Assembly (NCBI GenBank): GCA_024137785.1
Contig: JAHRHZ010000271.1
Coordinates: forward strand, 11,667,144 to 11,731,143
Source: Ginglymostoma cirratum
Lineage: Eukaryota
Direction of reading: 5' to 3'
DNA length: 64,000 bases
Shown here: positions 8,702 to 44,086 of the stretch, piece by piece
Layout: each line of letters starts with the position of its first letter
How positions within the stretch are numbered: position 1 is the first letter of the stretch
Position numbers and translations under genes: made by a program
The notes under the pieces: model-generated
Databases searched by the model: none
What the model was told of the DNA's origin: nothing
The model's input: only the letters and a program-made list of their open reading frames with translations

Positions 8702-9270
8702 AAGAGATAGTGGGAACTGCTGATGCTGGAGAATCTGAGATAACAAGGTGTAGAGCTNNNNNNNNNNNNNNNNNNNNNNNNNNNNNNNNNNNNNNNNNNN
8801 NNNNNNNNNNNNNNNNNNNNNNNNNNNNNNNNNNNNNNNNNNNNNNNNNNNNNNNNNNNNNNNNNNNNNNNNNNNNNNNNNNNNNNNNNNNNNNNNNNNN
8901 NNNNNNNNNNNNNNNNNNNNNNNNNNNNNNNNNNNNNNNNNNNNNNNNNNNNNNNNNNNNNNNNNNNNNNNNNNNNNNNNNNNNNNNNNNNNNNNNNNNN
9001 NNNNNNNNNNNNNNNNNNNNNNNNNNNNNNNNNNNNNNNNNNNNNNNNNNNNNNNNNNNNNNNNNNNNNNNNNNNNNNNNNNNNNNNNNNNNNNNNNNNN
9101 NNNNNNNNNNNNNNNNNNNNNNNNNNNNNNNNNNNNNNNNNNNNNNNNNNNNNNNNNAGCATCAGAGGAGCAGGAAAGCTGACGTTTCAGGCCTAGACCC
9201 GAAATGTCAGCTTTCCTGCTCCTCTGATGCTGCTTGGCCTGCTGTGTTCATCTAGCTCTACACCTTGTTA
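8702..9270. mobile_element. Palindromic mini-element (family A) containing the assembly gap
   Basis: Arms mirrored around TTTCAGGCCTAGACCCGAAA; 11-bp TSD TCCTTGTTTTT (8691-8701 and 9271-9281); inserted in a minus-strand CR1 fragment. Confidence 0.85.
8758..9157. other. Assembly gap (400 N)
   Basis: Run of N. Confidence 1.
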
Positions 9271-10699
9271 TCCTTGTTTTTGAACTGTGTTCTGATTCTA
9301 GTCCAACTTCTAGAAATAGTTCTCTTCTCTCCCACAGGGGTTGTATCCTTTCAGTATTTACCCTGTGAATTCCCCATTAGATTTTATATGCTCCATGAAG
9401 ATCACCCCTCAGTCTTCTAATCTCCAATGGATAAAAGCACAAACTGTTAAAACTATATATTCATTACCTTTAAGTGTGCTGAAAATATATATTTCTAAAG
9501 AAAGGTCAACAAAGGAACTTAATCGTTTGTATTTAATAGAAACACTTCCATTACTTATAAATGTTAGGTAGAGAGCATAAAGAGCTGATTAATTGAAACT
9601 CTGCCACAACTTCTAATATAATTAACGTTTGTGCAAATTTACATTTTGCATATATTACAGAAGCTCCGCATACAATTTCCTAAATCAGATTTTAATATCC
9701 GTCAATAACTTTTAAATTTATTCTGTGCCATTAACATTTTTGCTTCAGAGGTGGGAACAATGACTGGTGAGTAGGATATGAGAATATCACATCCTATTTC
9801 TGTTTAATTGCAAATGTAATGTTAACATAGCCAGAATTGACAGCCACCTGAGGTTATTTTATTAGGAACTGAAGCTGCCAATTCCAACCCTTAATACTGT
9901 AATTCAATGCTAACAAAAGCTGGAAAAGTTTCCTGTATTTCAAGTCACAGATTAACTATCTAGTATGTAAGAGGTAAACTAAATGTAAGTGAAATGATTT
10001 CAGTCTTGACATGTGATCTTTTTTGACGACTTGGAAACCTATCACATTGGCAGTAGAACTGCTGAAGGCTTCTTGTTGTACGTGCATTAGGAACAGGAGT
10101 TTGACCTTGCTTATGAAGGAATGCTAAGCAAGTTGAAATATTTAGTGGGTGTTCTAGGACTTAATACACTGCACTGACCTTAAGGCTGATATCCTGCACC
10201 AGCATCTCCTAAAGGATTTCTAGATATACTTCAGATTCCAGAAATGTTTGGGGGCAGAATGGTAGGTTCAGTGAGTCACCATGCTCAGGAATTAACCTGA
10301 CACATCCATCACTCAGGGTTTCAGTAGCCTCACAGCCACACAGTAGACTTTTCTCAAGCAGATCCCCAGCTCTGCTGAAATATAGATGATAGAACTATAT
10401 CTCTGACAGACTTCAAGGACGTGCAGCTAGAAAGAACAGTAATAGACAAGTTAAACCAAGAGGTGGAAAATGTAAAACAGTAAGCTGGAGAAAGTTGTGG
10501 TTCATTTGCAATTTCAAACCCCTCCAAACTGGGTTGATGTAAGCTGGAGAATTGGCATGTTAATTTCCAATTTGGAACTTTATTGTTTTCCCGGAGTCAA
10601 TGTTGTGTTTAACAACTCGAGGCCATGAACCACTTTTTTTCCTGAATATCTGTTTCTTGTTTTTATGTCAGAGCTAAACATTTTTCTGTTGTTATATCC

Positions 10700-11140
10700 T
10701 ACTCTGAACTGATTTTATTCCCTATCCCCACAACCAATTCCATTCACTTTGCCTTTAGTTCTACGACACCTTTTATCTCTAATCTCCATCTTTTGAACCT
10801 TTTCTTGACCTTCCCTTTTGATCTACTTCTTGCACCCCTTTTTTAGTGACACAAAACCTCCCCCAGAAAAACAGAAATTGATGGAGAAACTCAGGACGCC
10901 TGGCAGCACGTGGAAAAAAAAGCAGAGTCAATATTTTGAGTCCAGAATGAAGACCCTTCTTCCAGAAATTGTTTCAGATTTCCAGTATCTGCAGTTCTTT
11001 GTGTTATAAAACCCTACACATTTCCACCTCAGTTCAATCCAAATAAGAGCCATATTGTAATCAAAGCATTACCTCAGTTTGCCTCTCCTCTGATGCTGCC
11101 AGATCTGCTGCGTTCCCGTCACATTTTCACTTTTATTTCT
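10700..11140 (+). mobile_element. Old PLE 3' end
   Basis: Pyrimidine-rich UTR ending CCTCTGATGCTGCCAGATCTGCTGCG..CATTTTCACTTTTATTTC, similar to the other PLE termini. Confidence 0.5.
10864..11008. mobile_element. Mini-element (family B): antisense arm plus inverted tail
   Basis: AAAAACAGAAATTGATGGAGAAACTCAG..GACCCTTCTTCCAGAA followed by TTTCAGATTTCCAGTATCTGCAGTTCTT. Confidence 0.75.
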
Positions 11141-12429
11141 TCACTTCACGAAGACAGTCTGAAAATGTCAATACAGTTGTGGAAGCAAGAGAGGTAGTGG
11201 AAAAATAGTTGTCGTCAGTGTAGAGGGATCTTCATCCATTCAGTATTGATGCAGGGAGCACATAAGTAAAAGAGAAGGGAAGCCAAGAAACGGTAGGGGC
11301 TGTGGCTTAGATTGGGTGTGGGGGTATGATGGGGCAGAGACGTGGTTGGCGATAGATTAGGGGTGGAGTAGGTTGGAGACAGAGGTGGTGTGGGGATAAA
11401 TAGGAGATGACTGTTGTTAGGTTGTGGGAAGGCATTGACAACTTTGAAAATGGAGAATAGGATGTTTTGTTACACTTTATACAAATCTCCAAACCCAATT
11501 TGTCCTGAGTATTTTTGGCAAGGCAGAGCCCCAAAGTGGCCAAATGGGGTCTTAACATAAAACCTGGTTTACCCTGCATTTATTACAAGATGCTGTCATA
11601 ACAAAGGAATTAAGGGGCACAATATGAATGGTTACTCATGGCATCATTAAAGAGACAATGATCACTTCAATTGCATATTTACACTCATTAAGAAGACTGT
11701 GCAGCACTTAGGGGAGAGTATTTGACTTTAGCACATGCTTCTAAAAGTGAACAGCTGTTTGGGAGTAAACCAATTGCTAATGATGATTTTGAGTGCAACC
11801 TAATGATCATTGACCATTTCCTGCTCATTTGCTCCTGGAGCTTTGAAGAGAACTTGGAGATAGGATTATCCTGAAGGCTGTAGTTGAGTGTAAGTTATCT
11901 GACTCCGTGATAACAGAGTCAGTGGTTCAGAAATGTTCTGCTGCGGGGAAAATAGTTTAATCGTTGCTTGCATGTTGAACCTGTAGCTTTCAGTTTTAGC
12001 ATCACCAGGAACATTCAGATTATGGTAATCAATAATTAGGACTAAAGTTGTATGCTAAATCCTGACTTCCAAGCAATTGTGTCTTATAAGCACAGCATAT
12101 TTTTAGTACCTGTGTTCTTTTGCTAAATAATCCCCAAATTTATCAGTTGCTAAACGTAGCCTGAAACAACCTCCAAATACAACAGAGGTAAATTTTAATA
12201 TCCTCAGTAAACAGTGCATTGATCAAAGTCCACATTAACCAGTGCCATTCAGTTTAATGCAGGCAGTGGACAAATTTGTCCTGCCTATTCATATCAGTGA
12301 TTTCCACATCAGCAGGAAGCCCATGCAGTTACTTCATAGCAACTTTGGCCTGCAGGTTTTAAGGGAAGGTGTGATATGTTTGTTTGAGATACGAGGACAT
12401 TGTAAAGAGTTTTGATGGACAATCAACAA

Positions 12430-12538
12430 TCGGGCCTAGGCCCGAAACGTCAAGCTTTCCTGCTCGGCCTGCTGTGTTCATCCAGCCCCACGCCTTGTTA
12501 TCTCGGATTCTCCAGCATCTGCAGTACCTTTTATCTCT
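12430..12538 (+). mobile_element. Family A single arm starting at HHR helix II
   Basis: Begins with the perfect 16-bp palindrome TCGGGCCTAGGCCCGA, then AACGTC, arm and tail. Confidence 0.85.
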
Positions 12539-13005: not shown

Positions 13006-13069
13006 GGGCCAATAACTGATTTCAAAAGCAGCCATTAGTCTCCTCGGTTACTCCAGTTACACAAGTCAC

Positions 13070-13636: not shown

Positions 13637-13804
13637 GAGATAGTAGGAACTGCCGATGCTGGAGAATCTGAGATAAAACGTTGTGGAGCTGGATGAACAC
13701 AGCAGGCCAAGGAGCATCAGAGGAGCAGGAAAACTGACATTTCGGGTCTGGACCTGAAAGGTCGGCTTTCCAGCTGTGTTCCTCCAGCTCTGTGCCTTGT
13801 TATC
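13637..13804. mobile_element. Palindromic mini-element (family A), right arm partly deleted
   Basis: Tail and left arm, centre TTTCGGGTCTGGACCTGAAA, shortened right arm ending CCTTGTTATC. Confidence 0.85.
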
Positions 13805-14704
13805 ACAAAGGAAGTGAAAATTTATTTCTCGAAGAAGAATAAATGCTTTTGCTGAAACTAAAGATTTTATAAATGCCCCAAACAAATGAGTTTTTCTTTT
13901 GGTTCAATCAGGAGGAGGCAAAGAACAAAATTCCATCAATTATCTCAACAGGCATCTCATAAAATTGGTTGCAAGGTCAGAGTATGGCTTGTTTCATTTT
14001 TTTTAATTTAAAGAATAACTGACGTCACCTATTTATTTTGTTGTTTATCATATTTCACAAATGACAGGTAATTTGTAAAATGCAATTGGCCTGCAAACTT
14101 GTGTACTTTCTTCAGAGCATTAAAAAAAAATAAAATTGTCTCTTTGTTGCTTTTCCGTTTAGGACACAGTTCCTGAGCAATTTAAGATGTGAAGTGACAA
14201 TTCAAATGTTTAAGATACTCTCGGGCGGCCAAGATGTGGACTTGAGTTTAAATGCTGCTTTAATCCATTGTTGAGTACAATGATTAAAAAAATTTGAAAG
14301 TTGCATCCAAATGGTCACTCAGAAGCTTGTTAAAACAGCTGATTACTTTTCAAAATGCCCATTGGAGTTCATTAAAAGTCTAAACACTTTGAAAACCATT
14401 GCTGGTCCTCTCCCTAACAAAATCTACCCGAGATGAAACAAACTGCTGGTATGAATTAGAATGAAATTTAAAGCTATAATCAATTTCATATTCCAGAAAA
14501 TGCTGGAGCTGTGAGGAAGACTTCTGAAAAACTCCATTGTAATACTTTGAGGACATATTGACAAGACTTCAGCCACACTTTAGCAATATTTACTGCACAA
14601 ATTCTTCTAGGTCTTCACTCTACAAGAGCAAGTAACGTTCTGATCCATCCTGCCGGATGCTTCACTGGACTCAACAGGAGAAAAGGAGTGTTAAATCATG
14701 GGTA

Positions 14705-17192: not shown

Positions 17193-17521
17193 TCATAGAA
17201 TTCCCTACACTGTGGAAACAGGCCATTCGGCCCAATAAGTCCACACCGCCCCTCCGAAGAGTATCCCACCCAGGCCCATTCCTCTGCATTTTCCCATGTT
17301 TAACCCACCTACCTAAACATCCCTGGGCACTAAGGGAAATTTGACACAGCCAATCTACCTAGCCTGCACATCTTTAGACTGTGGGAGGAAACCGGAGCAC
17401 CCAAAGGAAACCCACGCAGACACCGGGAGAATGTGCAAACTCCACACAGACAGTTGCTCAAGGGTGGAATTGAACCCAGGTCCCTGGTGCTGTGAGGCAG
17501 CAGTGCTAACCACAGTGCCCC
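17193..17521 (-). mobile_element. HE1-type V-SINE
   Basis: tRNA head (GTGGTTAGCACTGCTGCCTCACAG..GGTTCAATTCC), V-domain (GTGTGGAGTTTGCACATTCTCCC..GGTGCTCCGGTTTCCTCCCAC) and CR1-like tail. Confidence 0.95.
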
Positions 17522-19504
17522 ATTGAGCTGTATTTCAATGGCTGAATAATTTGGGAAATATGAATTGTAACAGCTAAGCGTAAAAAGCATATAAAAATAT
17601 TTGTTGAGACAAACCTAGAGATGTTATTGTGAAATATTTAATATATCTTTGAGAAATTAGCTTTGAAATATTGTGGAGATGACTAAATATTTTAAAAAGG
17701 TCAACGAAAATCCTTTCTTAAATTATTTTATCTTGGAAACCATGATGTGTTGTGATAATTGCTGGTTTTGTTTGCTTGAGTTCACTTCAAGAAAAGCACT
17801 TGAGTATTTTATGACTGGGGTTTATGGTTGTACCATTTGAGCAATGTTTGCAGGATTGGAATTTCTGTTGGAATTCGTTCGGGAAAGCCTGTTAAGAATA
17901 AGCTGTACTGTTGATTTTCTCCTGTTTTCAAAACATCTTTGTGATGAATCGAGTGTGATCAAAAAAAAAATCCCAGTTTGGTGTTTTCTGTGTAAGCTGT
18001 GTCTGCCAAGGTTCCAGAGACAACCGTGTACAAATAGTGATGTAGCCACGCGTGTCAGCACACTAGTACTTCATAAAACTCTGTGCCTTTTACCTTCAAA
18101 AGTAATCAACCTTAACCAGAAAGTTATTTTTGCCCTTTTTAAAGCGCATGTCTTTAAAAGAAATCTTTTTTAGGTGCGCATTTGTGTGTGTGCTGCATTA
18201 TTTAGAAGAGAATGCATTCATATTTTTATATTACAAACTAGTAACCAATTCTGCAACTTGACTACATGGTTTTGTTTTATAATGAATTGCAACTTTGTGT
18301 TTGCTGAAGAAACTTAGTTGATGGATTTTTTTAATAAGATAACTTATAAGAATTTAATACACAAATTAAAGCAACAAAATATTTTTCTTTATATATTTTA
18401 AATTATTAATCACATTAGTAGCACTGACAATTAGTTACCAAAAACATGCTATGGAATGTGATTAATATAACAAATGAAGGTAGGAGGATTAAATAATTTC
18501 ATTATTTATTAAGTGAGAATGGAGAGAAAAGGTTTCTACTTCCTAATCAATGAGTCCAATACACTTCCTATTTTGATTAGATTCTTTGATAATACTTTGT
18601 CTTCTCCATATGTCCACAGTCCAAAATATAAACTTTTTGAAAATGGCGACTGAGCCAAGCATGGAAATTGCACAACCGAAGATAATTTTTGTACATAATG
18701 GGGTAAATTAAAGTTTTAGTATTCTGATTACAGAACTTCATTTATTTCAAATACTTAACACTGAGTGGTATATAACCAGACAGAATAATTTGCACAAAAA
18801 TATTTCTGATTTGCAGTCCTGTTATGTAACACTTTAGCAAGGGGCATTTGCATCATATGTTTGTCCCATACGAAATGTATCAGCAATCATTATTAGTGTT
18901 ATATCAGCCTTGGTTGCTACTAAGTAAAATGACATCATTGCACAGCTGTACCTCTATAATCCTGCTGATCTGGTGCAAAACTGGAATGGAGCTGCTTGAC
19001 CTGCTGTGTTCATCCAGCCCCATGCTTGTTATCACGGTATAGGGAGTGGTGTTTTACAAAGACAGACCAGCACTTCAACTGTTGATGATGAGAACGTATT
19101 GTGTATACCCATAATCAAATAAACAGGTAAAAGGTGCAATACACTCAGTTGTGAAACATATCATGGCACCAAGTCTGAATCTAGTTTTGAATCATGGTTT
19201 ATTATGAACTACTGAAATATGCCATTCTTTCTCTTTGCAATGATCACATATTAGTGTGAACATGGTAGATATGTCTAGCACACTTGTTTTGTCAAGGGCA
19301 ATCCACTTCTTAAATTATCCTCTTTCAGAAAGATTAATCTACATGCTGAGAAGTAAAATCCATTCAGACCTGAAGCAGATTTTTATGTTCTATGGGCCTT
19401 TTTATACTATAGTCTCACTGGAGGCATAACGTTGATTGGAATTGACAAGAATAATGTGATTTATAAGGAGATAATTGAAATCTCATAGAGGTAAAGAAAT
19501 CATT

Positions 19505-20939: not shown

Positions 20940-21780
20940 GAATGGGTAATTTTTCCTTCAAGAGACAAAGGGAGAGATTGAGTTTGCTGGATTGAATGGA
21001 AGAGCTGTCAGTGATGCTACAAGAGCAGGGAGGGTGATGAGGTGCCTCCAGTGAGTAAATAGGAAATGCAGAGGCCAGGAAGGATTAGGGTTTAGGAGGA
21101 GGAGGTGGGCAAGAGATGTTGAGCGGACGTGAAGACTGCACTAGTGAGAGATGCGGTCCATGGGCCTTAGTGAGAAGCACGTGGAGTGATTCAGTCAGAG
21201 AGCGTGGTGGTCCTGTGAGTGTGACATAGCAGTTGAAAGATGGTGGCACTTATTCTTGTGAAGCGTAGAGCATCATGAATGTTCTTCTTGCTCTGCTGTG
21301 GATTCTGTTTAACCCGGGACACAGCATTGATTTGGATGGTTATCTGTTTCCATGCTGGTTGACTCAGGTAGCGTGATTTCCTTTGCTGGTCTGCAAGATA
21401 AAGCATTGCCCTCCCCTGTACATCCCTGTCCACTGGCATATCCCATTCCCTGCTGGTGAACTGAGGCCTCTTTTGGGCCATGTCCTCCATGATGACAGTT
21501 GAGCAGCACGTTGTGAGGTATAGTTCTTCACTTGTAGTGTCTCATGTGCAGTAGAAATGGGGCTTCACTATGGCACCAGCAACATGAATGTTATGAGCTC
21601 CCAGCAAAGGGCAGCACTTCCACCTGGCTCTACAATAAGCACACTGTACAGGCTGGGTGCATTATTAATGCGATGAAGCATGGAAGGTTGCCTGAGAAAA
21701 ATCACAATGGGCTTTGCCAAATTGGGTGCAGTCAAACCTATTCAAAAATACTCTGTGATTAGAAATGGGAGAATTGAGCC
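20940..21780 (-). mobile_element. PIF/Harbinger DNA transposon relic
   Basis: Contains a Myb/SANT-like frame; candidate TIR GGCTCAATTCTCCCA (reverse strand) near 21766-21780. Confidence 0.55.
21254..21490 (-). pseudogene. Myb/SANT-like DNA-binding domain (Harbinger ORF, MSANTD/NAIF1-like)
   Basis: KRPQFTSREWD..V..RAMLY...PAWKQITIQINAVSRVKQNPQQSKKNIHD fits the R.F..E...L...AW..IA..VNA....R...Q.KKW.D trihelix pattern with degenerate positions. Confidence 0.65.
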
Positions 21781-22023
21781 TTGTTAGATTTGGCAGCTGC
21801 CATGGTTTCTGTTGTCAATTTGTTGGAGATTTCTCCCCATGGTGTTCTGAGTACAACAGGTTCTGGAAGTGTGGATAATCCATTGCTTATTTTATTGCAC
21901 TATTTTTTAGACTGTGGTCCTTACTGGCCTAGTTCAGTACAGCAACCCTGGATATCTTCCTCTGTCTCTCTGTTGATAAGGAATTCTTGCTTTGATCTAT
22001 TTCTGTAATGGTCCCTGCACATG

Positions 22024-22751
22024 ATGGCACAGTAGTTAATGCTGCTGCTTCACAGCACCGGGGACCTGGGTTTGATTCCAATCTCAGGCAAATGCATGCG
22101 TGGAGTTTGCACATTCTACCTGTGTCTGCGTGGATTTCCTCTCACAGTCCAAAGACGATGTTGCCATGTATGGGAGACTTGAGTTATAAAGAAAGCTGGA
22201 TAGGCTGGGACATTTTCACTCAACATAGGGGGTTGAGAGGTGACCTTTATTGAAGTTTATAAAATAATTAGTGGTATAAATAGAGATAATGGCAGTTGTC
22301 TTTTCCCTAGGATGGGGGATTTCAACATTTTTAAGGTGAGAGGAGAGAGATTTAAAGAAGACATGAGGGGCAAATCTTTTACTCAGAGGGTGGTTTGCAT
22401 GTGGAATGAACTTCTGAGGATTACAATGTTGAAAAGACATTTGGATAAGTACACAAATAGGGAAGGTTTGGCAGAATATGGGCCAGGAGCAGGCAGGTGG
22501 GATCAGCTTAGTTTCAGATCATCTTCGTTATGGGCTGGATCTCGGGTCTGTTTCTGTGCTGTATGACTCTTATTTGCAGGTTAAGTGAATTTGCCATGCT
22601 AAATTTCCCATAGTGTGCCGGCTAAGTGGATTAGCCATGGGAAGTGCAGAGTTAAAGAGATCGGTTGGGGGTGGTAGGATGCTCTCTAGCAGGGCAGTGT
22701 GGACTTGATGGGCTGAATGGCCTGCTTCCGCACTGTAGGGATTCTATGATT
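22024..22751 (+). mobile_element. HE1-type V-SINE split by a CR1 insertion
   Basis: Head and V-domain 22024-22156; remainder and tail 22571-22751. Confidence 0.9.
22157..22570 (+). mobile_element. CR1 3' fragment inside HE1
   Basis: ORF 22240-22566 IEVYKIISGINR..FTQRVVCMWNEL; ends TGTATGACTCT. Confidence 0.9.
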
Positions 22752-22910
22752 CACACAAAGTAGTTGGCAGACGTTAACGCAGATCAAATCCTAATATAGC
22801 TGCTATTTGTAAAATGTTGAATCATATTTTCAATTGGTCCAATATTAGGTTACTTTGTGTCTTTGGCATAGATCATGCCACTCTCTTTCAGTTGAGGCAA
22901 TTAACCTTTA

Positions 22911-23051
22911 AACATAAACAGAAAGTGCTGGAGAAGCTTAGCAGGTCTTAGTTACCTGTGGAGAAAAACCAGGGTGGGCGTATTGAGTCCCAGTGACCCT
23001 TCTCGAGAACATGCTTCAGATTTCCAGCATCAGCTGTTCTTCGTTTTATTT
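22911..23051. mobile_element. Mini-element (family B): antisense arm plus inverted tail
   Basis: Same layout as 10864-11008; 12-bp TSD AATTAACCTTTA / AATTAACTTTTA with one mismatch. Confidence 0.8.
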
Positions 23052-24089
23052 AATTAACTTTTATACTGTCTCAGGCATTAGCTTGGACAGCTCTCATACT
23101 GTCACTGTATTGATGAGGTAGGAGAGCTATCCACATCTTTGGGGAAACACTGTCAGAGTTTCTGTTTACCCTTGGAAATATTCATTGAATTTCAAAAGCT
23201 GTCTTGTGATTTTTCTCGTAAGCCAAGTGTGCCAGGGTGCAAGTAGAAACTAAATCCATGTGCTTTCTGGGAGATGTTTTATTAGATTCCTTGTTTCCAT
23301 TTTAAAGACAGATTCCCTTACAAATACAGATAATTATACATTTGTGGCAATGTGCACATGTTTCATTTACAATGCTTTCAATGAGGAGATAAATCAGTCA
23401 AAGGGTTATCTACAGACCTTGTTCCTCAGAACAAACACAGCGAAGCTGCCTTTGACTAACAGGAACGGGACCATTGGAACAATTCCAGTGTTGAGGTTGT
23501 TAACATCTCCCTGTGCTGTCATAGACAAAACAGAAAAGCATTTCAAACCTAAGAGATGATAATACAAATATTGGAAATCTGGATCAAAAACTGAAAATAC
23601 TACAGACAGTGATCAGGCTGGGTAGAATCTGTTTGTACGTCACTGTTCAATTGATATTTTTGCTTCTGTGCTTTACAAAATGCTAAGCATCTGCAGTCTT
23701 CTCTGTGGTTCCCATAAGATATAACAACCTGCAACAGAGGAACACATCTCAAGAAGGAACTGGATCTCAGTCATCTTGTGCAGAAAACAATGCATTCTAC
23801 ATATTTTGTAAACTGGATTGGAAACTAGATTTGTCAAAGGTTAAACACATTTCGGATGAACTTCCTTAATCTAAAAACCAAAACTTCCTTATTTCCTGGG
23901 TTAAACTAAATGTCCCGAACCTATCTTGGGTTATAAATGTTCATTTTTAACAAGGGAGTGACAGAAATACTGCAGAGTGTTCAGCAAGTGCCAAAGGTCC
24001 TGGAGTAAGAAGGACCATACAGACGGGTGTGCAACCATCCCTAAAGCTTCTAAAAACAACATGTTTTTATTTTTCATCCATCATGATAG

Positions 24090-25085
24090 GCAGAGAATGT
24101 ACTAAGGGGCAAACAATTTTTAATACATGCAGCAGATGCAGGGTAGGGACAATAGACAGGTTTTTGAGTTGGCAGGCTGTAAGTGATGATGTCCCGTGAC
24201 AATCTGTGTTGGGGCTTCAAATATTCACCATATTTATGAACAAATCTATGGTAGAAAACCATGTCTCAAAATTCAACAAACATAGGTGGCATAGTAGTGT
24301 ACATGGAGGCATGAAATTACCGAGATTATGATGGATTAAGTGTATGAGCCAAACTGTGGCAAATTAGTTTCAAAGTGGACAGGTGTGACATTATCCACCT
24401 TTCACCTAAAATGAATAAGACAGGCCACTTTCTAAATTTGAACAAGATAAAATCAAGAAAGGGCAAGTGGACTTGAAATCCAGACACACATATCATCAAT
24501 ATGTAACAAACATATACAAAAAATAATGTTAAAAACTAGTGGAATATAACCCATTATATCTGGAAGAATAGATATAAAGGGTAGAAGTCATTCTTCAGCT
24601 ATATCAGTGGTTGGTTAGACTGCGTTGAGTGATTGTGAGCAGTAATGGCACTACATTGTAGGACTGAGTTAATGCCTTTGACGAGCGTAGTGTAATAGAA
24701 TAATATTTGAATTAGGTTTAAATGACTAGAAGATATAGACTAAAAAGGGTGGTATTCCCTGGAATTAGAAGGCTAAAGGGAATTGGCAATGGATAGAGAA
24801 AAAAATATTTTGGTGGGTGGGAATCTAGGCCCCCAAGACATTATCTAAAAATTAAGAGTCAGATCTTTCAACGGTAAAACTAGAAAACATTTGTAAATGT
24901 GAAGGGAGGTAGAAGACTGGCATTCTTTTGTGTAAATGACAATTGGTGCTTAATCAATTATTAATGTTAAACCATGATTGGAAGTTTTTATTAATCATAC
25001 ATTGAGGCCTCTGAGCCAAAGGCAACTATACACAGTTAGGTTTTAAATCAACTATAATCTCAGGAACATGAGGTGCCACTGGCCG
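24090..25085 (+). mobile_element. Ancient CR1 fragment
   Basis: Highly diverged CR1 ORF2 motifs in the expected order. Confidence 0.55.
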
Positions 25086-27699
25086 TCTGTATTTGTAGAC
25101 AAATAAAGGGCTTTACCTTAGCCTAACCTGCTCGGTGTAAAACTAATGGAACTGGATCAGTGGCTTTTTTACCAAGTCCATAGCCCCTACCAACTTGGTT
25201 TCTCTCACACATTGAAGATAAAATTACCCTCATGGTTTTAACTACAGAGACAGATATCTGTTTTTAAGTTGTAACAATGACTGCTTTACTAATATATTTT
25301 AATTCTTAAGTACATTGTTCCAATATTTCAACAGAAAAGCTATCAGTTTACAGTGCTGACAGATCTGGTTCTGTTGATTGTAAACATATCAAACTATTCC
25401 CTATCTCCCTAAATTTTAATTCCAAACAAAATTGCATCAATTATCACACTTGGAAAACAACAGCTACTGAAAAGCTATTGTGTTAGCTTGGTTGTACACT
25501 GAAAGATATTGTGATTTAGAAAATAATATCTCATTAAAATGAATAATATCGTTTACATCAATGGAGCCTTGCAAGCAATTATGCTTTGTCAAGCAGCATA
25601 ATTGAATTAATATTATCAATGAATGTTTATGAGAAATCATTGGTTTACAAGATAATAGTCTGTATGTCTTGAGAAAGCCTACATACAGAAACATGAAAAC
25701 AGAGCCAAGTGTTATTTTCCCTCGTTGCATTTGAAATTGGCCCCAATGTACATTGTGGAGTTAGTCTTATATGGAACATTAAGCTATTTGTGACATCAAT
25801 GATGTCTATAAAGTAGTGCTACGACAGTGAAACTACAGTAAATCAACCTGTGACTGGGCTGAAAAATTTAATAGGCATGGTGATAGTCCTATCCATGCAT
25901 AACCAATCCTATCGCTGCCATTCTCCAAAGATAAATGAGATTAAATCCTGATCAGGCACTTATCTGTCTGCCATCAGGGCTCTGAGAGACTTCAGGATAA
26001 AGATCCGATTTCCATCTGCGGCCGGTCAATCAGAGTCCAACAGCACTTCAGTACTAGTAGCGCCACCAGGAATAATGGTCACTATTGGTACTGCAAGTAG
26101 CCCAAGTTGAAGGTATCCAATAGAGGAGAAGCAAATGGGGGGGGGCAGTCAGGCAGGCCCAGACCAAGCAAAGGGACAGAAGGATTGGTTTCAAAGTTTG
26201 GGAAGTATATTCCCACTGGGATGGTCCTTATTTCTGTTATGCATAGAATGTCTGACCAAGAAGGCTCTGTCACCAGCCACAGGCAGATGACTAGTATATA
26301 ACTGGAGGCCTGTTCACAAAGCATTCCCCCCGCTCCTCCTCCCATCTCCACTCTCACAATGGGGTAGAATAGGCATTTAAGGGGCTTAATTGCACTTATT
26401 CAGAAGAAGTCACAAGGATGACAGGTTGTCTAGGTGTGCCTTCAGTCCCACTACTCAACTCTATATGCTCCAACCCTGATGTGCCTATAAGGTAGAGCTG
26501 ATCTGCAGCTGAAATGTACATTCTACACTGAAGTTACAATATTTCACAACCTCTACATTAGAACTCTGCATTTTGTTTCTATTAACCATTCAATCCACCT
26601 CAACTTGTCTGTATTGCAATGTGCATGGGATCAGCCCAGGATCCAAAGGTTCTTTTTCTTATCTTCTTCCAGAGGGTTAGTGCTGATTGGTTGGCAAGTT
26701 GATTTTGTTGCTGCAGGAATGCATTTGGTTCCTATGGAAAGGCAAAGTATCTCAAAAATTTGAACGAATGATAAGAAAACTTCATGGTCATTTCCACCAG
26801 CAAAATGCTACTATCCGTCCAAAAAGACTTTCTGTCGATTGTACAATGTTGTGTATGAATTTCAGTGCTGGTGTGATGCCAAGTGCATGAGTCATACTGA
26901 CTGGCTCATTGAAGTAAATAGCATGATCCTTCCTCTGTCTGTAATAAGCAAGCAGGCCACCTGTGCAGACCCCTAAACAAAATGTCCACTGTAGAATATG
27001 CTTCTGTGTTTGGGCTGCACTTGCTAAACAATCCTAAATATGCTCATAACTACACGAAAAACCATGTTAAGATAATCAGTCAAGTTTGTAATGGCGCTCA
27101 CTTATGCTCATGAGAAGCAACATTCATTGTGATCTGTTTCCTGCACAGAATATGAATATGTTAAAGCCCCATGCCTTTTATCATGAATTACTGAACAATG
27201 TGAGAGCCTATAGTTGCCTTACCTTCTCTATGACAATTCCTTGACTATTTAGAGTTTGCTTGCCAAGCTCTGGTCAAGCCTTTCCCCTGTATTTTAAGTT
27301 CTTGTGACTGTTTGAAATTGTGTTCTTCCATTTGTCCTGAACAATGCTTGACAAAAAAACGTTTCAGCGACATCTTTCTCTTTCCATCAATATTCATTTG
27401 TTGAAGACTTGCAGTGAGTTGAAATTTATCATTCATCAAATAAAATCTGCCGAATGATAGATGATTTTGTAATATATTTCATTTTAATACTTATGTTGCT
27501 AATAATTTTTGTAACATTATCATTTTAGCTGCACGCGTTCCACTTATGTGAGGTAAATTTGCATCAACACAACTGTTGTTGTCCTGATAAAAATTAGGGA
27601 TAATTATTAAAAATTAGAGCTCACTTTATTCAGAAGCCATTCTATATAATAGCGACAGCAGAGGGCCCTAAAAATCTAACATTAAATCCTTCATTGTTT

Positions 27700-28306
27700 A
27701 GTCCTTTGAATACCGGAGTCGGGACATTACGTTGAGGTTATACAGGATGTTGGTGAAGCCCCTTCTAGAGTACTGTGTGCAGTTCTTCTCACCCTGCTGC
27801 AGAAAGGATGTTATTAAGCTGGAGAGCATACATAAAGATTTACCAGGATGTTCCCGGGAATGGAGGGTTTGAGTTAAAAGGAGAAGCTGGATAGGCTGGG
27901 ACTATTATTCACCAGAGCATAGGAGGCTGAGGGGTGACCTTTTTCAAGGTTTATAAAATCATGAGGGGCATAGATAAGGTGAATGACAGGTGCCTTTTCC
28001 CTAGATTGGGGTATTTCAAGACTAAGGGACATTTTTTAAGTTGAACGGAGATAGATTTTAAAAAAGACAAGGGGGGCAACATTTTTACTTAGAGAGTGGA
28101 CCATGTGTGGAATGAACTTCCAGACGAAGTAATAGATGCTGGTACAGTTACAACAATTAAAAGATATTTGGATAAGAACATGAATAAAACCTGTTTGGAG
28201 GGATATGGGCCAAGCGCAAGCAGGTGGGACTAGTTTGGTTTGGGAACACAGTCAGCATGGATTGGTTGGACTGAAGGGTCTGTTTCTGTACTGTATGACT
28301 CTATGA
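27700..28306 (+). mobile_element. CR1 3' fragment
   Basis: LVKPLLEYCVQF motif through the TGTATGACTCTATGA tail. Confidence 0.9.
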
Positions 28307-29526
28307 TAACTTTAAACTGTGATTTTTTTTTTCTCAATGTCGGTAGCTGTTTCTAAACTGAACAATGATGATGAGTAATTTAAATTTTGATGCTAGACTC
28401 TGGGGGCTGAATGAAAGAGTTGGTGCAGGACCCAATAACTGGAGAGTGGTCTAATGTTGTGCCTTTGTTGAAGAAAGGTTGTAAGGAGAAACCAGGGAAC
28501 TATTGACCTGCGAGTCTGAATTCAATCGTGGGTAAATTGTTGGAGGCGATTACAAAAGTTAGATTTATGAACACACGGGCAAAAATTAATTAAGGATAAT
28601 CAGCATGGTTTTGTGCAAGGAAAATCATGTCTCCAAACTTAACTGTGTTTTTGAGGAAGTTACCAAAAAGATTGATGATGGTAGAGCAGTAGATGTTATT
28701 TATTTGGATTTTAGTGAAGCGTTTGACAAGGTTCCGCATGACCGATTAACCGGTAAAGCTAGGTCACATGGGATTCAGGGTGAACTTGCCAATTGGAAAC
28801 ATAATTGGCTTAACGGCAGGAGACAGAGAGTAATGGTGGAGGCAACAAACGTGGAGCTGGTCAAACACAGCAGGTCAGACTGCATCTGAGGAGATGGGAA
28901 GTCAACGTTTCTGGCCGAAATGCTTTGTCAGGGCTGGGGACGGGGTGAGGAGCCCAGAAATAAAAAGAGGGAGGAATGTGGAGCTGGATAAAAGTAGGTG
29001 GGATGGTGATAGGTGGATGCAGCTAGGAGGTTATAGCAATTGGTCAGTGGGAAGGTTAGGGTGGATAGGTGAGTAGGAAGATGTAGAGATTAGGACAGTT
29101 TAGGGAGGTGGGACATGGGATAAGACTGGGGGTGGAGGGATTTTGAAGTTGGTAAGTCAATATTCAAGCCCTTGGGCTGTAAGATCCCAAGGTGAAATAT
29201 CAGGTGTTTTTCCTTTAGTTTACGTTTGGCCCCACTCTGACAGTGGAGAGACCAAGGACGGACATGTTGCCAGGAGAGTGGGAGGGGGAATTAAACGAGA
29301 TGGCAACCAGAAGGTCGGGTTGGTTGGTACATGTACAATGCAGATGCTTTGTGAACTGGACTTGAGTCTGCGTTTGGTCTCCCTGATGTAGGGAGCAAGG
29401 AATGCAATAAATCAGATTGGATGAAGTGCAGGTGAATCTCTGCTGGATCTGGAAAGATTGTTTGGGGCCTTGGATGGAGGTGAGATGGGAGGTGTAGGGG
29501 CAAGTATTGCACCTTTTGCAGTTGCA

Positions 29527-29574
29527 GTGGAGGGTACCGGGGTGGAGGGTACCGGGTGGAGGGTACCGGGTGGA
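29527..29574. repeat. Three tandem copies of a 14-15 bp unit GTGGAGGGTACCGG(G)
   Basis: Direct reading. Confidence 0.9.
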
Positions 29575-29710
29575 TGAACAGCCCCTGAGGAAAGCAGACA
29601 GGGGCGGGGAAGGAAGTATCATTTTGGTGGTGGGGTCAGACAGGAGGTGACGGAATTGTCGGAGAATGATGCAATGGACTTGGAGGTTGGTGGGTTGGTA
29701 CGTGAGGACT

Positions 29711-30460
29711 AGAACATAAGAACTAGGAGCAGGAGTAGGCCATCTGACCCCTCGAGCCTGCCCCGCCATTTATTAAGATCATGGCTGATCTTTCTGAGAC
29801 TCGCCTCCACTTAGCCGTTCACTCACCATAACCCTTAATTCCTTTACTGTTCAAAAATTTATCTAGCCTTGCCTTAAAAACATTGTGAGGTAGCTTCAAC
29901 CGCTTCACTGGGCAGGGAATTCCACAGATTCACAACCCTTTGGGTGAAGAAGTTCTTCCTGACCTCAGTCCTGCATCTGCTTCCCTTTATTTTGAGGCGA
30001 TGCCCTCGAGTCCTAGTTTCACCTACTAGCAGAAACAACCTCCCTGCCTCCACTTTATCTGTTCCCTTCATAATCTTATATGCTTCTATAAGATCCCCCC
30101 CTCATTCTTCTGAATTCCATTGAGTATAATCCCAGTCTACTCAGTCTCTCCTCATAATCCAACCCTCTCAACTCTGGAATCAACCGAATGAATCTCCTCT
30201 GCACCCCCTCCAGTGCTAGTATATCTCTTCTCAAGTAAGGAGACCAAAACTGCACACGGTACTCCAGGTGTGGCCTCACCAGGACCCTATGCAGCTGCAG
30301 CATTGCCTTTTAAACTCCATCCCTTGAACAATGGCAGATAAAATTCCATTTGCCTTTTTAATCACCTGCTGTACCTGTAATCCCACCTTCAGCGATTCAT
30401 GCACAAGGACACCCAAGTCCCTTTGCACAGTAGCATGCTGCAATTTTTTACCATTTAAAA
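29711..30460 (-). mobile_element. Relatively young CR1 3' fragment nested in the PLE
   Basis: Near-intact LVRPHLEYRVQFWSPYLRRDILALEGVQRRF and KNFFTQRVVNLWNSLP; GTTCTTATGTTCT tail. Confidence 0.95.
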
Positions 30461-33400
30461 CACAGTGACTAATGACACTCTATCCTTATTGTTGTTGTGG
30501 GGAGGGAGTTTGAGGGCAAAAATGCGGGAAATGGGGGAGATGCGATTGACTGCATCTTTAATTATAGAGGAGCGGAAACTATGGTCTCTAAAGTAGGAGA
30601 ATATCTGGGATGCCCTGGAGTCAAATGCCTCATCCTGGGAGCAGATGCTGCAGAGGCGGAGGACTTGAGGTTATGGGATTGCATTTTTGCAGGAGGGTGG
30701 GTGAGAGGAGGTGTAGTCGAGGTAGTTGTGTGAGTCAATGGGTTTGAAATGGATGTCAGTAGTGAGTCAGTTTCCAGAGACGGGGCCAGAGAGGTCCAGG
30801 AAAGGAAAGGAGGTGTCAGAAATTGTCTGGGTGAGTTTGAGGGCAGGGTGGAAGGTGTTAGAAAAGTTAATGAACTGTTGGAGCTCCTTGCGGGAGCATG
30901 AAGTAGTGCTGATATAGTCATCAATATAACGGAGAAAGAGGTGAGGATGGTGCCGGTGTAGTTGTGGATGAGGTTCTGTTCCATGAATCCTACAAAGAGG
31001 CAGGCATAGCTCGGGCCCATACGGAAGCCCATAGCCAACCCTTTAGTTTGTCAGAAGTCAGAGGAATCAAAGGAAAAATTGTTGACGACCAGTTCTGCCA
31101 AGTGGATGAGGGACGGGAACTAAGTGGATCTATAGGAGGGGAAGAAGTGGAAGGATTCCTTGTGGGGAATGCAGGTACATAGGAACTGAACATTCGCAGT
31201 GAAGATGAGGTGTTGGGGGCAGGGGAATTGAACGTTTTGGAAAAGGTAGAGGGCATGGGTTGTGTCACAAAAGTTGGTGGGGAGTTCCTGGACTAAAGGG
31301 GAAAGAACGGAGTCAAGGTAGGGGAGATAAACTCAGTGGGGCAGCAGCAGGCAGAGATCATGGGTCGACCGGGGCTGTCAGGTTTATAGATCTTGGGTAG
31401 GAGAGAGAAACAGGGATGCGGGGTTGGTGAACTATCAGGTTGGAGGCTGTAGGCAAGATATCTCCTGAGGTGATGAGGTTGTTGATGGTCTGGGAGATGG
31501 TGGCTTGGTGATCAGAGGTGGGGTCAAGATTGAGGGGATGGTAGGAAGAGGCATCAGAGAGTTGGCGTCTGGCATCAGCAATTGTAGAGGTCAGTTCGCC
31601 ATACTACCATCAGAGAGGGACACCCTGAGCTGGAAGTTTACTTTTCAGACTGGGAGGCCTGTGACTAGTTGTGTACCACAGGGATCGTTTCTGGGTCCTC
31701 TTTTGTTTGTCATTTATATAAATGATTTGTGTGATAATATAGAAGGCTTGTTTAGCAAGTTTGCGGACAATACCAAGGTTGGTGGCATTGTAGACAGTGG
31801 AGAAGGTTTTCAAAGATTACAAAGGGATGTTGGTCAAATGATTCAATGGGCTGAAAAATGACAGCTGGAGTTCAATCTGGATAAATGCGACATATTGCAT
31901 TTTGGTACAACAAACAAGGGTAGGGATTACACAATTAATGGTCGGGCCTTTTGTAGTGTTGTAGAACAGAGGGGTCTTGGGATGCAGGTACATAATTCTT
32001 TGAAGTTTGTGTCACAAGTAGACAGGGTAGTTGAAAAGGGGCTTGGCACACTTGCCTTTGTCGCTCAGTTCTTTGAGTACAGGTTTTGTTGAGGTTGTAC
32101 AGGACATTGGTGAGGTCTCTTCTGGAATACTGTATCCAGTTCTGGTCACCCAGTTATAGGTAGGATATTATCAAGCTGAGCAGGGTTCAGAAGAGATTTA
32201 CCAGGATGTTGCCAGGTGGGGAAAGTTTGAATTATAAAGAAAGGCTGGGACCTTTTTTTTTAACTGGAGTGTAGGAGGTTGAGAGGTGACCTGATAGAAG
32301 TTTGTAAAATAATGAGTGATATTAATAGAGTTAATGGTGGTTGTCTTTTCCCTAGGATAGGTGATTACAAGACCAGGGGGCACATTTTTAAGGTGAGAGG
32401 AGAGAGATTTAAAAAAGACATAAAAGGCAATTTTTTGACACGGGGTGGTTCGCGTATGGAATGAACTTTCCGAAGAAATGGTGGATGTGGGTACAATTAC
32501 AAAGTTTAAAAGACATTTGGATAAGTACATGAATAGGAAAGTTTTGGAGGAATATGGGTCAGGTGCAGGCAGGTGGGACTAGTTTTGTTTGGAATTATAT
32601 TTGGCATGGACTAGTTGGCCCGAAGGGTCTGCTTCCATGCTGTATGAGTCCATGACTCTGACTCTATGACCTGAATCATTTTGAGCCTTGTTCATATTTA
32701 TTTGCAAACTGAAAGTATGTGACTGAGCTGAGTCTACCAGTGGCTTAGACCTTCAGCACTGAGATTCACTTGAAAGTCAGAATGGGCAGGGCTTCAGTGG
32801 TAATTAGGCACATTATCTCTTTCAATGTGAACATAGAGATGGAGGTGTCAGGTATGGGTTGCACTCTATTATTTGGAAATAACCATTTATCATTAACAAA
32901 TACAAGCAGTTGCATTTTTCGTTAGCAATGATTTAGTGGGACTGTGTTGATAAATGAGGGAAAAATGCTCAGTCTATTGCAGCGAAATAAGAATGGTCAG
33001 AACATAATAATATAGTGGATTTCTGTCATTGATGTTGTTCATATTTTCCAGTCATTTGTCACTGTTTTACACAAAATTTCAAATGTCAGAATATCCCAAA
33101 GGATACACAATATTTCTCAACTCTTATTATAGACACTGGTACAGGGAGGACGTTATAATAATCCTAGCTTAGAAAGCTGCCTCCAGCTATGCACCTTCAC
33201 TTATTATGTTATAACAATAAATTGTAAAAAAATGTTACTAAAATACTCCAGATCCATGAAATGGGAGTTGGAATGTTGGTCCCTTATTTCTCTGATGCAA
33301 TCCAGGTGGAATTAGATTGCAATGTCAATGGATTGTCTCCCTGCAAACAGTGGGATAAATCAGCAAAAATGTCTAACTAGTCAGACACAGTCAGCCTGAT

Positions 33401-33917
33401 GCCAAGCCTAGACAGCCATCAGTGTACAGTATGATATATGAAGCGAAATGGCATTTACACCTGAGGAATTGACACTCTGGAAGAACTTGCCTAAGAGCGC
33501 CTCGGTATCCTGATTTACAGTCATTTCATCAGGAATATGTTGACAATATGCTGAGTAACAATTAGAATGAAATACGATACAACTGGCTTTATTAGTTGGA
33601 TCATGAGATTCTTTCGTCTGCAGTTTGTTAATCTGAAACTGTTGCAAGGACGCAAAATAATAAATACAGCATCTGCCATGCCTAGCCTTATTGCCTTCCC
33701 TTCCTTGGATGCCTTTCAATGTCTTCATGTGAGACAGTCACAATATTAAAACAATATTTGTTTGCACCCTTGATATTTCATAGATTGCGCCATTAACATT
33801 GTAAGAGGCAAGGTGAATTGACTAATCAGATGACGCGTTTTCACACAGATGATGTCAACATCACTAATTACAAGACAGAATTGGAATGGTGTTTGGTCAG
33901 AATATTAATTGAGGAAT

Positions 33918-34115
33918 AAATTACTGCAGATGCTGGAATCTGTACTGAAAACAAGAAATGCTGGAAATCACATTGGGTTGGGCAGCATCCATGGAGAGAG
34001 AGCAAGCTAATGTTTTGAATCTAGACAATTCTTCATCAGAGTTGAAAATATTAGCTTGCTCTCTCCACGGATGCTGACCAACCCCCTGTGATTTCCAGCA
34101 TTTTTTGCTTTCATC
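33918..34115. mobile_element. Palindromic mini-element (family C)
   Basis: Inverted arms (GCAGCATCCATGGAGAGAGAGCAAGCTAAT / ATTAGCTTGCTCTCTCCACGGATGCTG); exact 11-bp TSD AATTGAGGAAT (33907-33917 and 34116-34126); degenerate CUGAUGA motif on the minus strand. Confidence 0.85.
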
Positions 34116-41539: not shown

Positions 41540-41730
41540 AGTTACTATTGCCCTACCAGACGATGTTGCTGCTTTCTCATTAAAGTTTAACCGGAGGGTT
41601 GCCATACCTCAGGCGAGGGAGCATTGGAGAAGGAGAGTCCTTCATGGCAACTTCAGCCTGTACAAGAATAGAACCCACACTGTTAGCATGACATCACATT
41701 GCATACCAGCTGACCAAGCTAACTGTACTT
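41540..41730 (-). mobile_element. tRNA-derived SINE (same family as 63355-63585)
   Basis: Shared GAACCCACACTGTT(A/G)GCAT and (C/T)TCAGG(C/T)GAGGG segments. Confidence 0.65.
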
Positions 41731-41955
41731 AATATTCCTTTCTATTTTTTGGCTTGAAACTTAACTTGATTTAGGGCTTTTTCAGTTGGATTTGTATTAT
41801 TCCTGAACATAGCATACATTCAGTTTATTTGTCTTTTGAATGTCTCCACAAATTCTCTTTGCTCACCTTGGGGCTGACTCCTGACAATCATTCAAATTTG
41901 AAATAGCCTTTAAGTTGAGTGAGTTTGAATCAGCTGGCTCTCTCAATAATGTGGC

Positions 41956-42180
41956 TGTAGTGATTGGAACCAGATTGACCTCGTTGACTACAAGATCATT
42001 GGTCCAGATTAACAACCTCAATCAATCAGGAAAGCCCTGGCTGACCGATATAACCAGGAGATTAGAATTCTTCAGTCCAGGAAACTGACACCAAGCTGGC
42101 TGGCCGTGGCCAGTGTATTGTGCACAAGTAAATAAAGGGTGACTCGGAGATGGGATACCAGCCGCTGCGCAGTTATTTCA
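41956..42180 (+). mobile_element. Short solo LTR (about 225 bp)
   Basis: TGTAG...AGTTATTTCA, GATATAA, AATAAA; near-TSD GTGGC/GTTGC; homologous to 16511-16740. Confidence 0.75.
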
Positions 42181-42659
42181 GTTGCTAAGTTGGGGATGTA
42201 CATGGTTTGCGAGAAATCTTATCTTATTTTCCTCTGTTTTCTGAGCCATGGGAACTTACGGAGGCATTATATTTTGCTTATAGCTGCTGTCTTTGGCCTG
42301 AAAAAGACTAAGGCTCTTTTTTTTTTGCTAGGTTTGTTTTCTTCAAGCAAAAAAAACTTCCCAGCAACACACAATGTCACAATCGAAATGCAACAGTAGT
42401 GAGATGCTTGATGTCCTCTGGTGAGCTGATTTACTATACCGAATAATTTCCAGATAAAATGTGTCTCAAAAACAGATGTTAAGTTAGCTGGCCTATGGTT
42501 ACCTGTCTTTTCTCTGCTTTGCTTTGCTTTTAAATAAAGCTATTACATTGGCTGTTGTCCAATTTTCTCGGACTTTTCCAGAATGTAAGTATCCCTAGAA
42601 AGATAGCTACCTGTTCCTCCACTATCCCTGTAGCGGCTTCCTTTAATATCACATAATAA

Positions 42660-43860
42660 AGACCAGCTTGTGTTTCAAATTCCACATTCCTAGCTGTCCC
42701 TGATAACCTCAGAACTTATTAGAAAGGGTCACTCAAACCTAAACGTTAACTCTGATTTGTCTCCACAGATGCTCCTGCTGAACTTTCCCAGCAATATATG
42801 TTTTTGTTTCTGATTTAGAGCATCTGCAGTTTTTTCCATTTTTACTTGGTGACCCTTAATTTAAACCAGTGCCTCCTAGTTCTGGAGTCACACCCAAGGA
42901 ATTATCCTTTCCAGTTCCACCATGTTAATGCTATTCAGGATCTTTTATACTGCAATCAACTCTTCCCTTTTCTAAACTCCAGTGCAATCAAACCCAGCCT
43001 TTCCAACCTAGCCTCACAGGCAACCCATTCATTCTAGCTATCAATCTAGTAAACTTCCTCTGAACCGTTTCCAATACATTTACATCCTTTCTTCCATAAG
43101 GAGATCCAAACTGCGCACAGCATTTGAGATGTGGCCTCACCAATGATCTGTATTTAAAAGCATAACATCATTATTTTTATATTCCATTTATTTTGTAATG
43201 AAAGATAGTATCCCATTGGCCTTTTTGATGATGCGGTTTTCCTGCATACTGACATTTGAGTGACTTATGCACCAGAGCCTAGATCTTTCTATGTCTCATA
43301 ATTCCACAGTCATTCTTCATTAAAATAATACTCTGATTTTTCTTTGTTCTGTGTCAAAGTGAACAACTTCATGTTTTTCTGCAAAATTTCATCCACCAGA
43401 TGTGTGACCATTCACTCAACCTATCTATATCAGTCTGCAAACATCTTATGTCCTCTTCACATTATACTTTCCTACCTGTCTTTGAGTCATCTAAAAAATA
43501 GCTACCATGCTATTACTTCCCTGAACTAAATCATTGATATAAATTGTGAAAATTTGAGGTCCCAGCACAGACTCCTGCAGATCTCCATTGATCACATCCT
43601 GCCTTTCAGACAAACATATTATTCACACATGTTCTGTTTTCTGCCAGCCAATCTTCCATCCATTTTAATATGAGACACCTTACACAATGAGCTTTTGCTG
43701 CCCACAATAACCATTGGTGTGGCAGTTTATCAAATGCCTTCTGGAAATCCAAAGACCATATATCTGTGGGCTACCTTTAATCTACTGCATGTTGTACTCC
43801 TTCAAAGAGGTTTAATAGATTGATCAAATATTATTTTCCTTTCATGAGACCATGCAGACA
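42660..43860 (-). mobile_element. Old CR1 fragment
   Basis: Diverged CR1 ORF2 sequence on the minus strand (e.g. TCAAATGCCTTCTGGAAATCCAA encodes LDFQKAFD). Confidence 0.8.
42708..42846 (+). mobile_element. Family B arm with degenerate HHR and tail
   Basis: AAGGGTCACTCAAACCTAAACGTTAACTCTG..CCACAGATGCT..CATCTGCAG. Confidence 0.75.
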
Positions 43861-43882
43861 AACCCCAACTGCCTATCTTTGA

Positions 43883-44086
43883 TAAGAGATAATGGGTACT
43901 GCAGATGCTGGAGAATCTGAGATAACAAGGTGTGGGGCTGGATGAACACAGCAGGCCAAGCAGCATCATAGGAGCAGGAAAGCTTGACGTTTTTTAGGGT
44001 CTAGGCCCTAAAAAACGTCAAGCTTTCCTGCTCCTATGATGCAGCTTGGCCTGCTGTGTTCATCCAGCCCCACACCTTGTTATCTC
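43883..44086. mobile_element. Near-perfect palindromic mini-element (family A)
   Basis: 84-bp arms 43919-44002 and 44003-44086 with two mispairs; one-sided tail 43886-43918; TSD CTGCCTAT(C/T)TTTGA at 43869-43882 and 44086-44099. Confidence 0.95.

Follow-up and report, generated by a model that had tools for sequence, protein, structure and literature searches.

Background

Inverted, 5'-truncated pseudo-long terminal repeats (pLTRs) and tails are standard in Penelope-like elements (PLEs), as far as the accessible parts of the literature describe them (PMC8557442, PMC8969392), and the former source calls the origin of the inverted structures unresolved. Palindromes at inverted PLE junctions, one of them with a 15-bp overlap, have been read as products of self-priming in the available text of PMC3846280 (Arkhipova et al. 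2013). The minimal type I hammerhead ribozyme (HHR) of metazoan PLEs comprises the CUGANGA box, one extra base, helix II, GAAA and a palindromic minimal helix III, and pairs of minimal HHRs on opposite strands, 100-700 bp apart, are reported in the same accessible text (PMC4209133, Cervera and de la Pena 2014). For the Poseidon element PAc, in vitro work, as available to us, found that both strands are nicked and extended, that two reverse transcriptase (RT) start sites define the tail, and that HHR cleavage is dispensable for insertion (PMC11167929, Frangieh et al. 2024). Here we analyse a stretch of 64,000 nucleotides from Ginglymostoma cirratum (hereafter: the window), which contains a repeat family, called family A, composed of short 5'-truncated pLTR pieces of a PLE carrying a minimal hammerhead, and we find that helix II is a recurrent point at which inverted PLE insertions are joined.

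Family A resembles the EN+ PLEs (Craig et al. 2021, PMC8557442; PMC3846280), as far as these are described in the accessible text, in its head-to-head 5'-truncated inversion, in a tail of 30-40 nt at one end and in its target duplications, which are near 8-10 bp there and 11-14 bp at three of the four inverted copies of family A. The ribozyme is unmentioned in the main text of PMC3846280, whereas here the junction palindrome is helix II, in elements of about 200 bp; and self-priming is proposed there, whereas the loop orientation here favours two cDNAs. In the minimal HHRs of PMC4209133, the palindrome of interest in the text available is helix III, in connection with dimer cleavage, while four of the copies described here are without the catalytic box; no mapping of junctions is seen in that text. 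The formation of inverted copies or junctions is not addressed in the accessible part of PMC11167929, and nothing on junctions appears in the corresponding parts of PMC6765202, PMC5625713 and PMC9977147. The non-LTR retrozymes (bioRxiv 10.64898/2026.07.22.740005, in the part available) are likewise non-coding PLE pLTR derivatives with a type I HHR, but they are tandem and head-to-tail; a retrozyme assignment was rejected, the copies in the window being dispersed and head-to-head rather than in at least two head-to-tail units. In the open literature we found no paper that places a PLE junction on helix II; subscription papers, supplements and Repbase/Dfam notes, which lay outside the search, may record the link. 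The element class is known; the new, partly tested detail is helix II as a recurrent joining point.

In twin priming of L1 elements, two primed strands yield an inversion with microhomology at the junction and a target duplication. Two copies of a family related to A, 10962 and 23003 (copies are named by a coordinate, see Table 1), share this form and represent the plain twin-priming form of PLE insertion. The inverted pairs described here differ from it in their overlapping arms, which make a palindrome, and in the position of their junction on an RNA structure.

Results and discussion

Family A consists of short PLE insertions

A profile made from ten arms of the window gives 29 matches in its 64 kb and none in five shuffled windows. 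Each arm runs in the order CUGANGA, one extra base, helix II, GAAA and then an ACGT palindrome (helix III); in each pair, one arm bears the PLE tail and exceeds its partner by 33 nt. In the tail-bearing arm of copy 7002 the CUGANGA box is followed by the extra base, helix II, GAAA and a palindromic helix III, and the hammerhead reading of the initial annotation fits the minimal type I layout in the accessible text of PMC4209133. The annotation's statement that the box was lost from four copies, 8702, 12430, 13637 and 43883, and kept in 7002 was also borne out: among the family A copies a scan for CTGANGA...GAAA finds the box at 7099 only, and the left arm of 7002, with its mutated GAAA, has it as well. 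Helix I is not found in 7002, where the box is preceded by an A run and folding predicts the junction hairpin, while a 4-bp helix I is readable by eye in the related copy 48400. Rfam returned no hammerhead match at E <= 1, only sub-threshold miRNA-like matches arising from the hairpins, for which a miRNA reading was rejected, and there was no RNA holder among the 24 runs listed.

The 33 nt between the two 3' ends fall within the 30-40 nt expected of a PLE tail at one end, and an adjacent inverted 5'-truncated copy lies at the 5' end in four family A and four related copies. Target duplications were sought at boundaries set by eye beforehand, with 391 random pairs as the null; they are of variable length, 11-15 bp, and flank 6 of the 8 inverted copies as compared with 1 of 7 single arms. 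They are clear (11-14 bp) at three of the four inverted copies of family A, weak at 13637 (6 bp, equalled in 8% of the null) and absent at 10962. The tail-bearing single arms 12430, 7577, 42718 and 50308 are without one, and among the single arms 7577, 34244, 50308, 61057 and 42718 only 34244 has one.

The 3' ends were also studied in contigs of a related species, from four runs of four studies (20,953-33,316 contigs aligned per run; the loose-end classes are those among the matches listed). A first fixed end lies before position 13637, with loose ends in 954, 932, 995 and 700 contigs of the four runs, and a second before 13670, with 218, 211 and 193 contigs in three runs; the same end is indicated by contigs of another class, clipped at 13682. 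These ends are 33 nt apart, the short arms end at the second one, and the two agree with the tail of PLEs and with the pair of RT start sites given in the accessible text of PMC11167929. The one-sided tail, the two 3' ends, the inverted arms and the target duplications therefore identify the copies as short PLE pLTR insertions. A miniature inverted-repeat transposable element (MITE) or other palindromic DNA transposon was rejected, the tail being at one end only and the target duplications, of 11-15 bp, differing in sequence.

Helix II at the centre of inverted copies in the window

The initial annotation placed the symmetry centre of copies 8702, 13637 and 43883 at the stem-loop of helix II, and this is what we find: a single 12-bp stem with GAAA on both sides. 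The centre of 43883 lies within GGGTCTAGGCCC (43997-44008) and that of 13637 within GGGTCTGGACCT (13744-13755). The arms of 43883 (43919-44002 and 44003-44086) abut directly (0 nt between them) and show 98% complementarity, and the hairpin folds with z = -23.6 relative to 200 shuffles. Its GAAA core has become an A run by an identical change in both arms (43990-44016), which suggests either a source RNA with a dead ribozyme or arms homogenised afterwards. In 13637 the right arm is decayed (47 of 64 aligned columns match, with a 23-nt deletion); its right flank, 13793-13880, is present in the related-species contigs with three differences, and its left flank is without cover. Copy 12430 was said to begin exactly at the palindrome; it does begin with a perfect one of 16 bp (12430-12445), which is helix II plus 2 nt of the inverted arm, so that its start is 2 nt before the helix rather than on it. 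Copy 12430 has a 14-nt internal deletion and no target duplication, and is probably a fold-back copy that has lost its short arm. In 7002 the join lies upstream of the box and both arms keep the box.

We regard it as hardly credible that these structures are assembly or library fold-back artefacts, or due to chance. The left arm of 8702 is interrupted by a run of 400 N, and the arms of 43883 are unusually alike, which would speak for such an origin; however, target duplications enclose the elements (at 8702 an 11/11 duplication encloses both pieces), the arms of 7002 and 13637 are diverged, and in the metagenome loci described below the tail is on one arm only (30/41 and 19/20 loci in the two largest families).

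Helix II junctions in independent families

Since four copies from a single window carry little weight, an independent set was sought in metagenomes, by scanning for two inverted GAAACGTC cores 4-34 nt apart. At least 109 loci were found, all family counts being those among the matches listed, and these fell into four AT-rich families with 46, 21, 9 and 4 members; 29 other loci (clusters of three and two, and singletons) were set aside. Merging loci with common flanks reduced the families to 41, 20, 9 and 4; some merges may be wrong, and that of L025 with L058 cost one case with a single helix. The PLE origin of these loci is putative, judged from the core motif, the arms and the tail, in 250-nt flanks and with variant boxes. 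Their arms, of about 50 nt, are by inspection unlike family A except for the core, and a search with an exact 24-nt family A motif gave no metagenome locus. The tail is on exactly one arm in 30/41, 19/20, 6/9 and 2/4 loci of families 1-4.

The spacer between the cores equals one helix II in 14/41, 4/20 and 4/9 loci of families 1-3, as compared with 1.1-1.7, 0.5-0.8 and 0.2-0.4 expected under five nulls (P <= 5e-10, <= 0.008 and <= 5e-4, respectively). The length of the helix was taken from arms of long-spacer loci in families 1 and 2, and rests on fewer loci in family 3. In family 1 the count of 14 stands against a mean of 1.9 at neighbouring spacings, and under stricter clustering 13 of 42 loci have one helix. 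Family 4 has no such locus (0/4), and one arm in it begins about 3 nt ahead of the box. When 38 kb of flanking metagenome sequence was scanned, too few additional, unselected copies were recovered.

The loop of helix II in families 1 and 2 is non-palindromic and thus shows which arm donated it. Among the 13 one-helix loci with a tail call, the loop comes from the tail arm in five and from the short arm in eight. The junction with one helix is already seen in nearly undiverged copies (arms 93-100% identical, including some at 98-100%), and arm identity does not differ detectably between shared-helix and long-spacer loci (Mann-Whitney p 0.29, n 14 vs 12, and 0.87, n 4 vs 9). Within one subfamily of family 2 the spacers measure 15, 22 or 28 nt, and the loop occurs in either orientation. 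In loci L064, L090 and L109, three young copies of one subfamily, the junctions differ inside helix II, two of them having 2-nt overlaps.

Other observations were made among these loci. In L012 a tandem array of units of about 29 nt with a GAAAC core (280-535) extends from one arm; here the ribozyme region has seeded a satellite. Loci L080, L087, L097, L007, L071, L092 and L041 are GC-rich and probably bacterial inverted repeats that fit the pattern (intergenic-repeat-like); L041 is a perfect palindrome of at least 250 nt on each side, possibly an assembly artefact.

How the join may be made

We favour a model in which the join forms during integration, when two cDNAs from opposite target strands anneal via helix II; whether it is true or false seems to us about evenly balanced. 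The PLE protein would nick both target strands about 11-15 bp apart, and one cDNA would be primed on each strand, from two internal RT start sites separated by about 33 nt, so that one arm would come with a tail and the other without. Both cDNAs would usually halt after about 100-130 nt, inside the ribozyme region. As copies of the same strand they could pair only through self-complementary sequence, and their 3' ends would anneal most readily via the stems of helix II, which would supply two such stems in one register at the place where synthesis tends to stop; fill-in would then keep a single helix II as the axis and lose the CUGANGA box. The architecture, target duplications, 3' ends, junction peak and loop orientations are our observations, while both-strand nicking and extension and the RT start sites are taken from the literature. 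Copies 10962 and 23003, which have an inverted short arm joined to a tail alone, and 48401, in which the short arm extends further 5' than the tail arm, need two primed strands; and two cDNAs make the simplest model, given that in PAc each strand is nicked and extended and two start sites are used.

The initial annotation had proposed that helix II acts as a point of snap-back priming or template switching, or as a deletion hotspot between two inverted HHRs. In snap-back self-priming, one cDNA would pass helix II, fold and extend on its own strand to give the second arm. The polarity is right (what lies 3' of helix II is present twice, and the box is missing), both arms of 43883 have private changes in common, and self-priming has been proposed for PLE junction palindromes, there on antisense RNA (PMC3846280, in its accessible text). 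However, snap-back of a tail-primed cDNA predicts loops from the tail arm only, while 8 of 13 are the opposite, and it leaves unexplained the ends of short arms at the second fixed 3' end, as well as copies 48401, 10962 and 23003. Snap-back is thus disfavoured as the sole mechanism (we consider it quite improbable as the general explanation), although some of the copies may arise in this way, and our data tend to favour annealing of two cDNAs over it.

Deletion after insertion would act on a pair of the 7002 type, by slippage or hairpin repair between its two copies of helix II, and leave one helix. The two self-complementary copies are also direct repeats flanking a short hairpin that contains two boxes, a precursor of this type is present in the window, and the one-helix peak and both loop orientations are predicted equally well. 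Loss of palindromes is visible in the single tail arms 12430, 7577, 42718 and 50308 without target duplications, and 12430 retains 2 nt of the inverted arm. Against deletion, no greater age is detectable for shared-helix loci than for long-spacer loci, and arms of 98-100% identity already have one helix, though rapid loss from perfect palindromes while they are young would be compatible with this. On balance deletion appears unlikely as the source of the junctions.

The four window copies could also go back to a single event, if one palindromic master was amplified. Four of the five core-bearing family A copies in the window are without the box, while contigs that keep the box form the largest class in the related species, and 12430 and 43883 have diagnostic changes in common (100 of 110 columns). 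Yet when helix II is followed from the tail arm, its two asymmetric positions have a different reading in each of the four copies, as different crossovers would make it (single-base differences, a weak sign), and mixed spacers and loop orientations occur within one subfamily of family 2. A master copy is, in our opinion, very unlikely.

Helix II and other junctions

Inverted PLE insertions of several unrelated families are repeatedly joined at helix II, and we take this recurrence to be real. Within about 25 nt the junctions form two clusters or more, one on helix II itself and another at a site just 5' of the CUGANGA box. The suggestion of the initial annotation that helix II is the junction point is thus upheld by the one-helix peak in three unrelated families and has to be widened to include the second cluster; copies of the same superfamily in the window that are joined elsewhere had been absent from it.

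Several facts weigh against a leading role of helix II or against its use by two annealing cDNAs. About ten arms in the window begin just 5' of the box: both arms of 7002, 10962, 23003, 34043, the short arm of 48401, and the single arms 7577, 34244, 50308 and 61057. The loose-end class of the related-species contigs that is largest at the helix II end (1043, 1028, 970 and 784 contigs) has a consensus that runs into the box, with an agreement of 0.49-0.51 over 30 letters. The metagenome pattern is blind to spacers longer than 34 nt, so joins with the box on both arms, and joins 3' of GAAA, are uncounted. Helix II is, therefore, neither the sole nor clearly the main junction. In the metagenome families it gives 5-bp stems, no longer than other self-complementary runs of the arms. 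Finally, the arms of 43883 share 10 alignment columns (about four events) that are distinct from the other copies, and these common changes fit copying of one cDNA, or later conversion from arm to arm, as well as a shared RNA template.

The idea that helix II is the uniquely longest self-complementary run was rejected, as it holds only for 12430; because helix II is not unique in this respect, the position at which RT stalls probably matters as much as pairing. From the related species we obtained joints in single contigs only and no distribution. The depth just past helix II (608-1183 at 13758, compared with 438,000-557,000 in the bin before) was not used as a sign that shared-helix copies are few, since contigs break at palindromes and the reference arm is decayed.

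Two further observations concern the second cluster. In a family comprising loci L018, L028, L046 and L049, and in the singleton L038, one arm always begins about 3 nt before the box while the end of the other varies. In the window, the single related-family arms 7577, 34244, 50308, 61057 and 42718 begin at most a few bases from the box, which suggests that the template has a fixed 5' end or that RT stops there.

PLE ORF remnants and other features of the window

A broken PLE open reading frame (ORF), with a YIDD motif in its RT and a GIY-YIG-like part at the C-terminus, lies on the same strand 5' of a pLTR piece with a decayed ribozyme (Table 1). This pLTR piece belongs to a relative 64% identical to the tail arm of 7002; the parent ORF of family A itself was not seen. 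The broken ORF matches an RT remnant at 46224-46877 by tblastn (34-39%, E 1.5e-12), and the atlas gives a lead, not a firm call, to GIY-YIG clusters (score 0.93, family on 27% of members); Pfam returned no RT or GIY-YIG match for the five PLE fragments (six proteins scanned). A second broken PLE ORF, of another family and RT-like by the atlas (0.96), occupies 45333-47461 on the minus strand, with no family A pLTR adjoining. Dispersed SINE-like repeats are found at 17200-17520, 22000-22740, 49800-50080, 61580-61850 and 62440-62750, and many CR1-like LINE 3' fragments elsewhere.

Table 1. Family A copies, related copies and PLE remnants in the window (positions are those of the window)
Feature	Position	Strand	Remarks
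Left target-site duplication of 7002	6988-7001		right copy 7223-7236; 14/14 match, 0/391 random pairs as high
Short inverted arm of 7002	7002-7096	-	box kept, GAAA mutated; end is the proximal 3' end
Tail-bearing arm of 7002	7097-7222	+	box 7099-7105, extra A, helix II 7107-7118, GAAA 7119-7122, ACGT helix III palindrome, tail
Left target-site duplication of 8702	8691-8701		right copy 9271-9281; 11/11 match
Tail and outer part of tail-bearing arm of 8702	8702-8757	-	N run next
Inner tail arm, common helix II and short arm of 8702	9158-9270		helix II 9189-9200 is the axis
Related-family copy (10962)	10867-11003		inverted short arm, end just 5' of box, joined to tail alone; no target duplication found
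Copy 12430	12430-12537	+	tail-bearing arm; starts with 16-bp palindrome: 2 nt, helix II 12432-12443, GA
Copy 13637	13637-13808		tail arm on minus strand, common helix II 13744-13755, decayed short arm
Short family A fragment	18991-19035	+	end is the proximal 3' end; no ribozyme core
Related-family copy (23003)	22908-23046		same short-arm-plus-flipped-tail form; target duplication 11/12
Family-A-related pLTR piece, decayed ribozyme	28836-28945	-	3' of same-strand PLE ORF remnant; 63/98 columns (64%) identical to 7002 tail arm
Broken PLE ORF	29215-31107	-	RT with YIDD motif, C-terminal GIY-YIG-like part
Related-family inverted copy (34043)	33916-34113		tail arm with box, short arm halts at GAAA; target duplication 13/14
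Left target-site duplication of 43883	43869-43882		right copy 44086-44099; 13/14 match
Copy 43883	43883-44086		tail arm on minus strand, common helix II 43997-44008, short arm
Related-family inverted copy (48401)	48280-48482		short arm with box, tail arm begins inside helix II; target duplication 13/15

Conclusions

A junction on helix II with either loop orientation makes the question of inverted structures testable in the existing in vitro system of PAc, and these data weigh against the published self-priming as the sole route. Many short palindromic repeats in such genomes are, on this evidence, halves of dead ribozymes that arise afresh with every insertion; they are neither MITEs nor miRNA genes, and would give long double-stranded RNA hairpins if transcribed. 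Whether helix II serves, apart from catalysis, as an annealing site at the DNA level, which closes integration by two cDNAs from opposite strands, is a broader and doubtful proposition. If it is true, such a role would account for the inversion of pLTRs and for the palindromes at their junctions in the PLEs of animals in general, and might be among the reasons why weakly cleaving ribozymes are kept.

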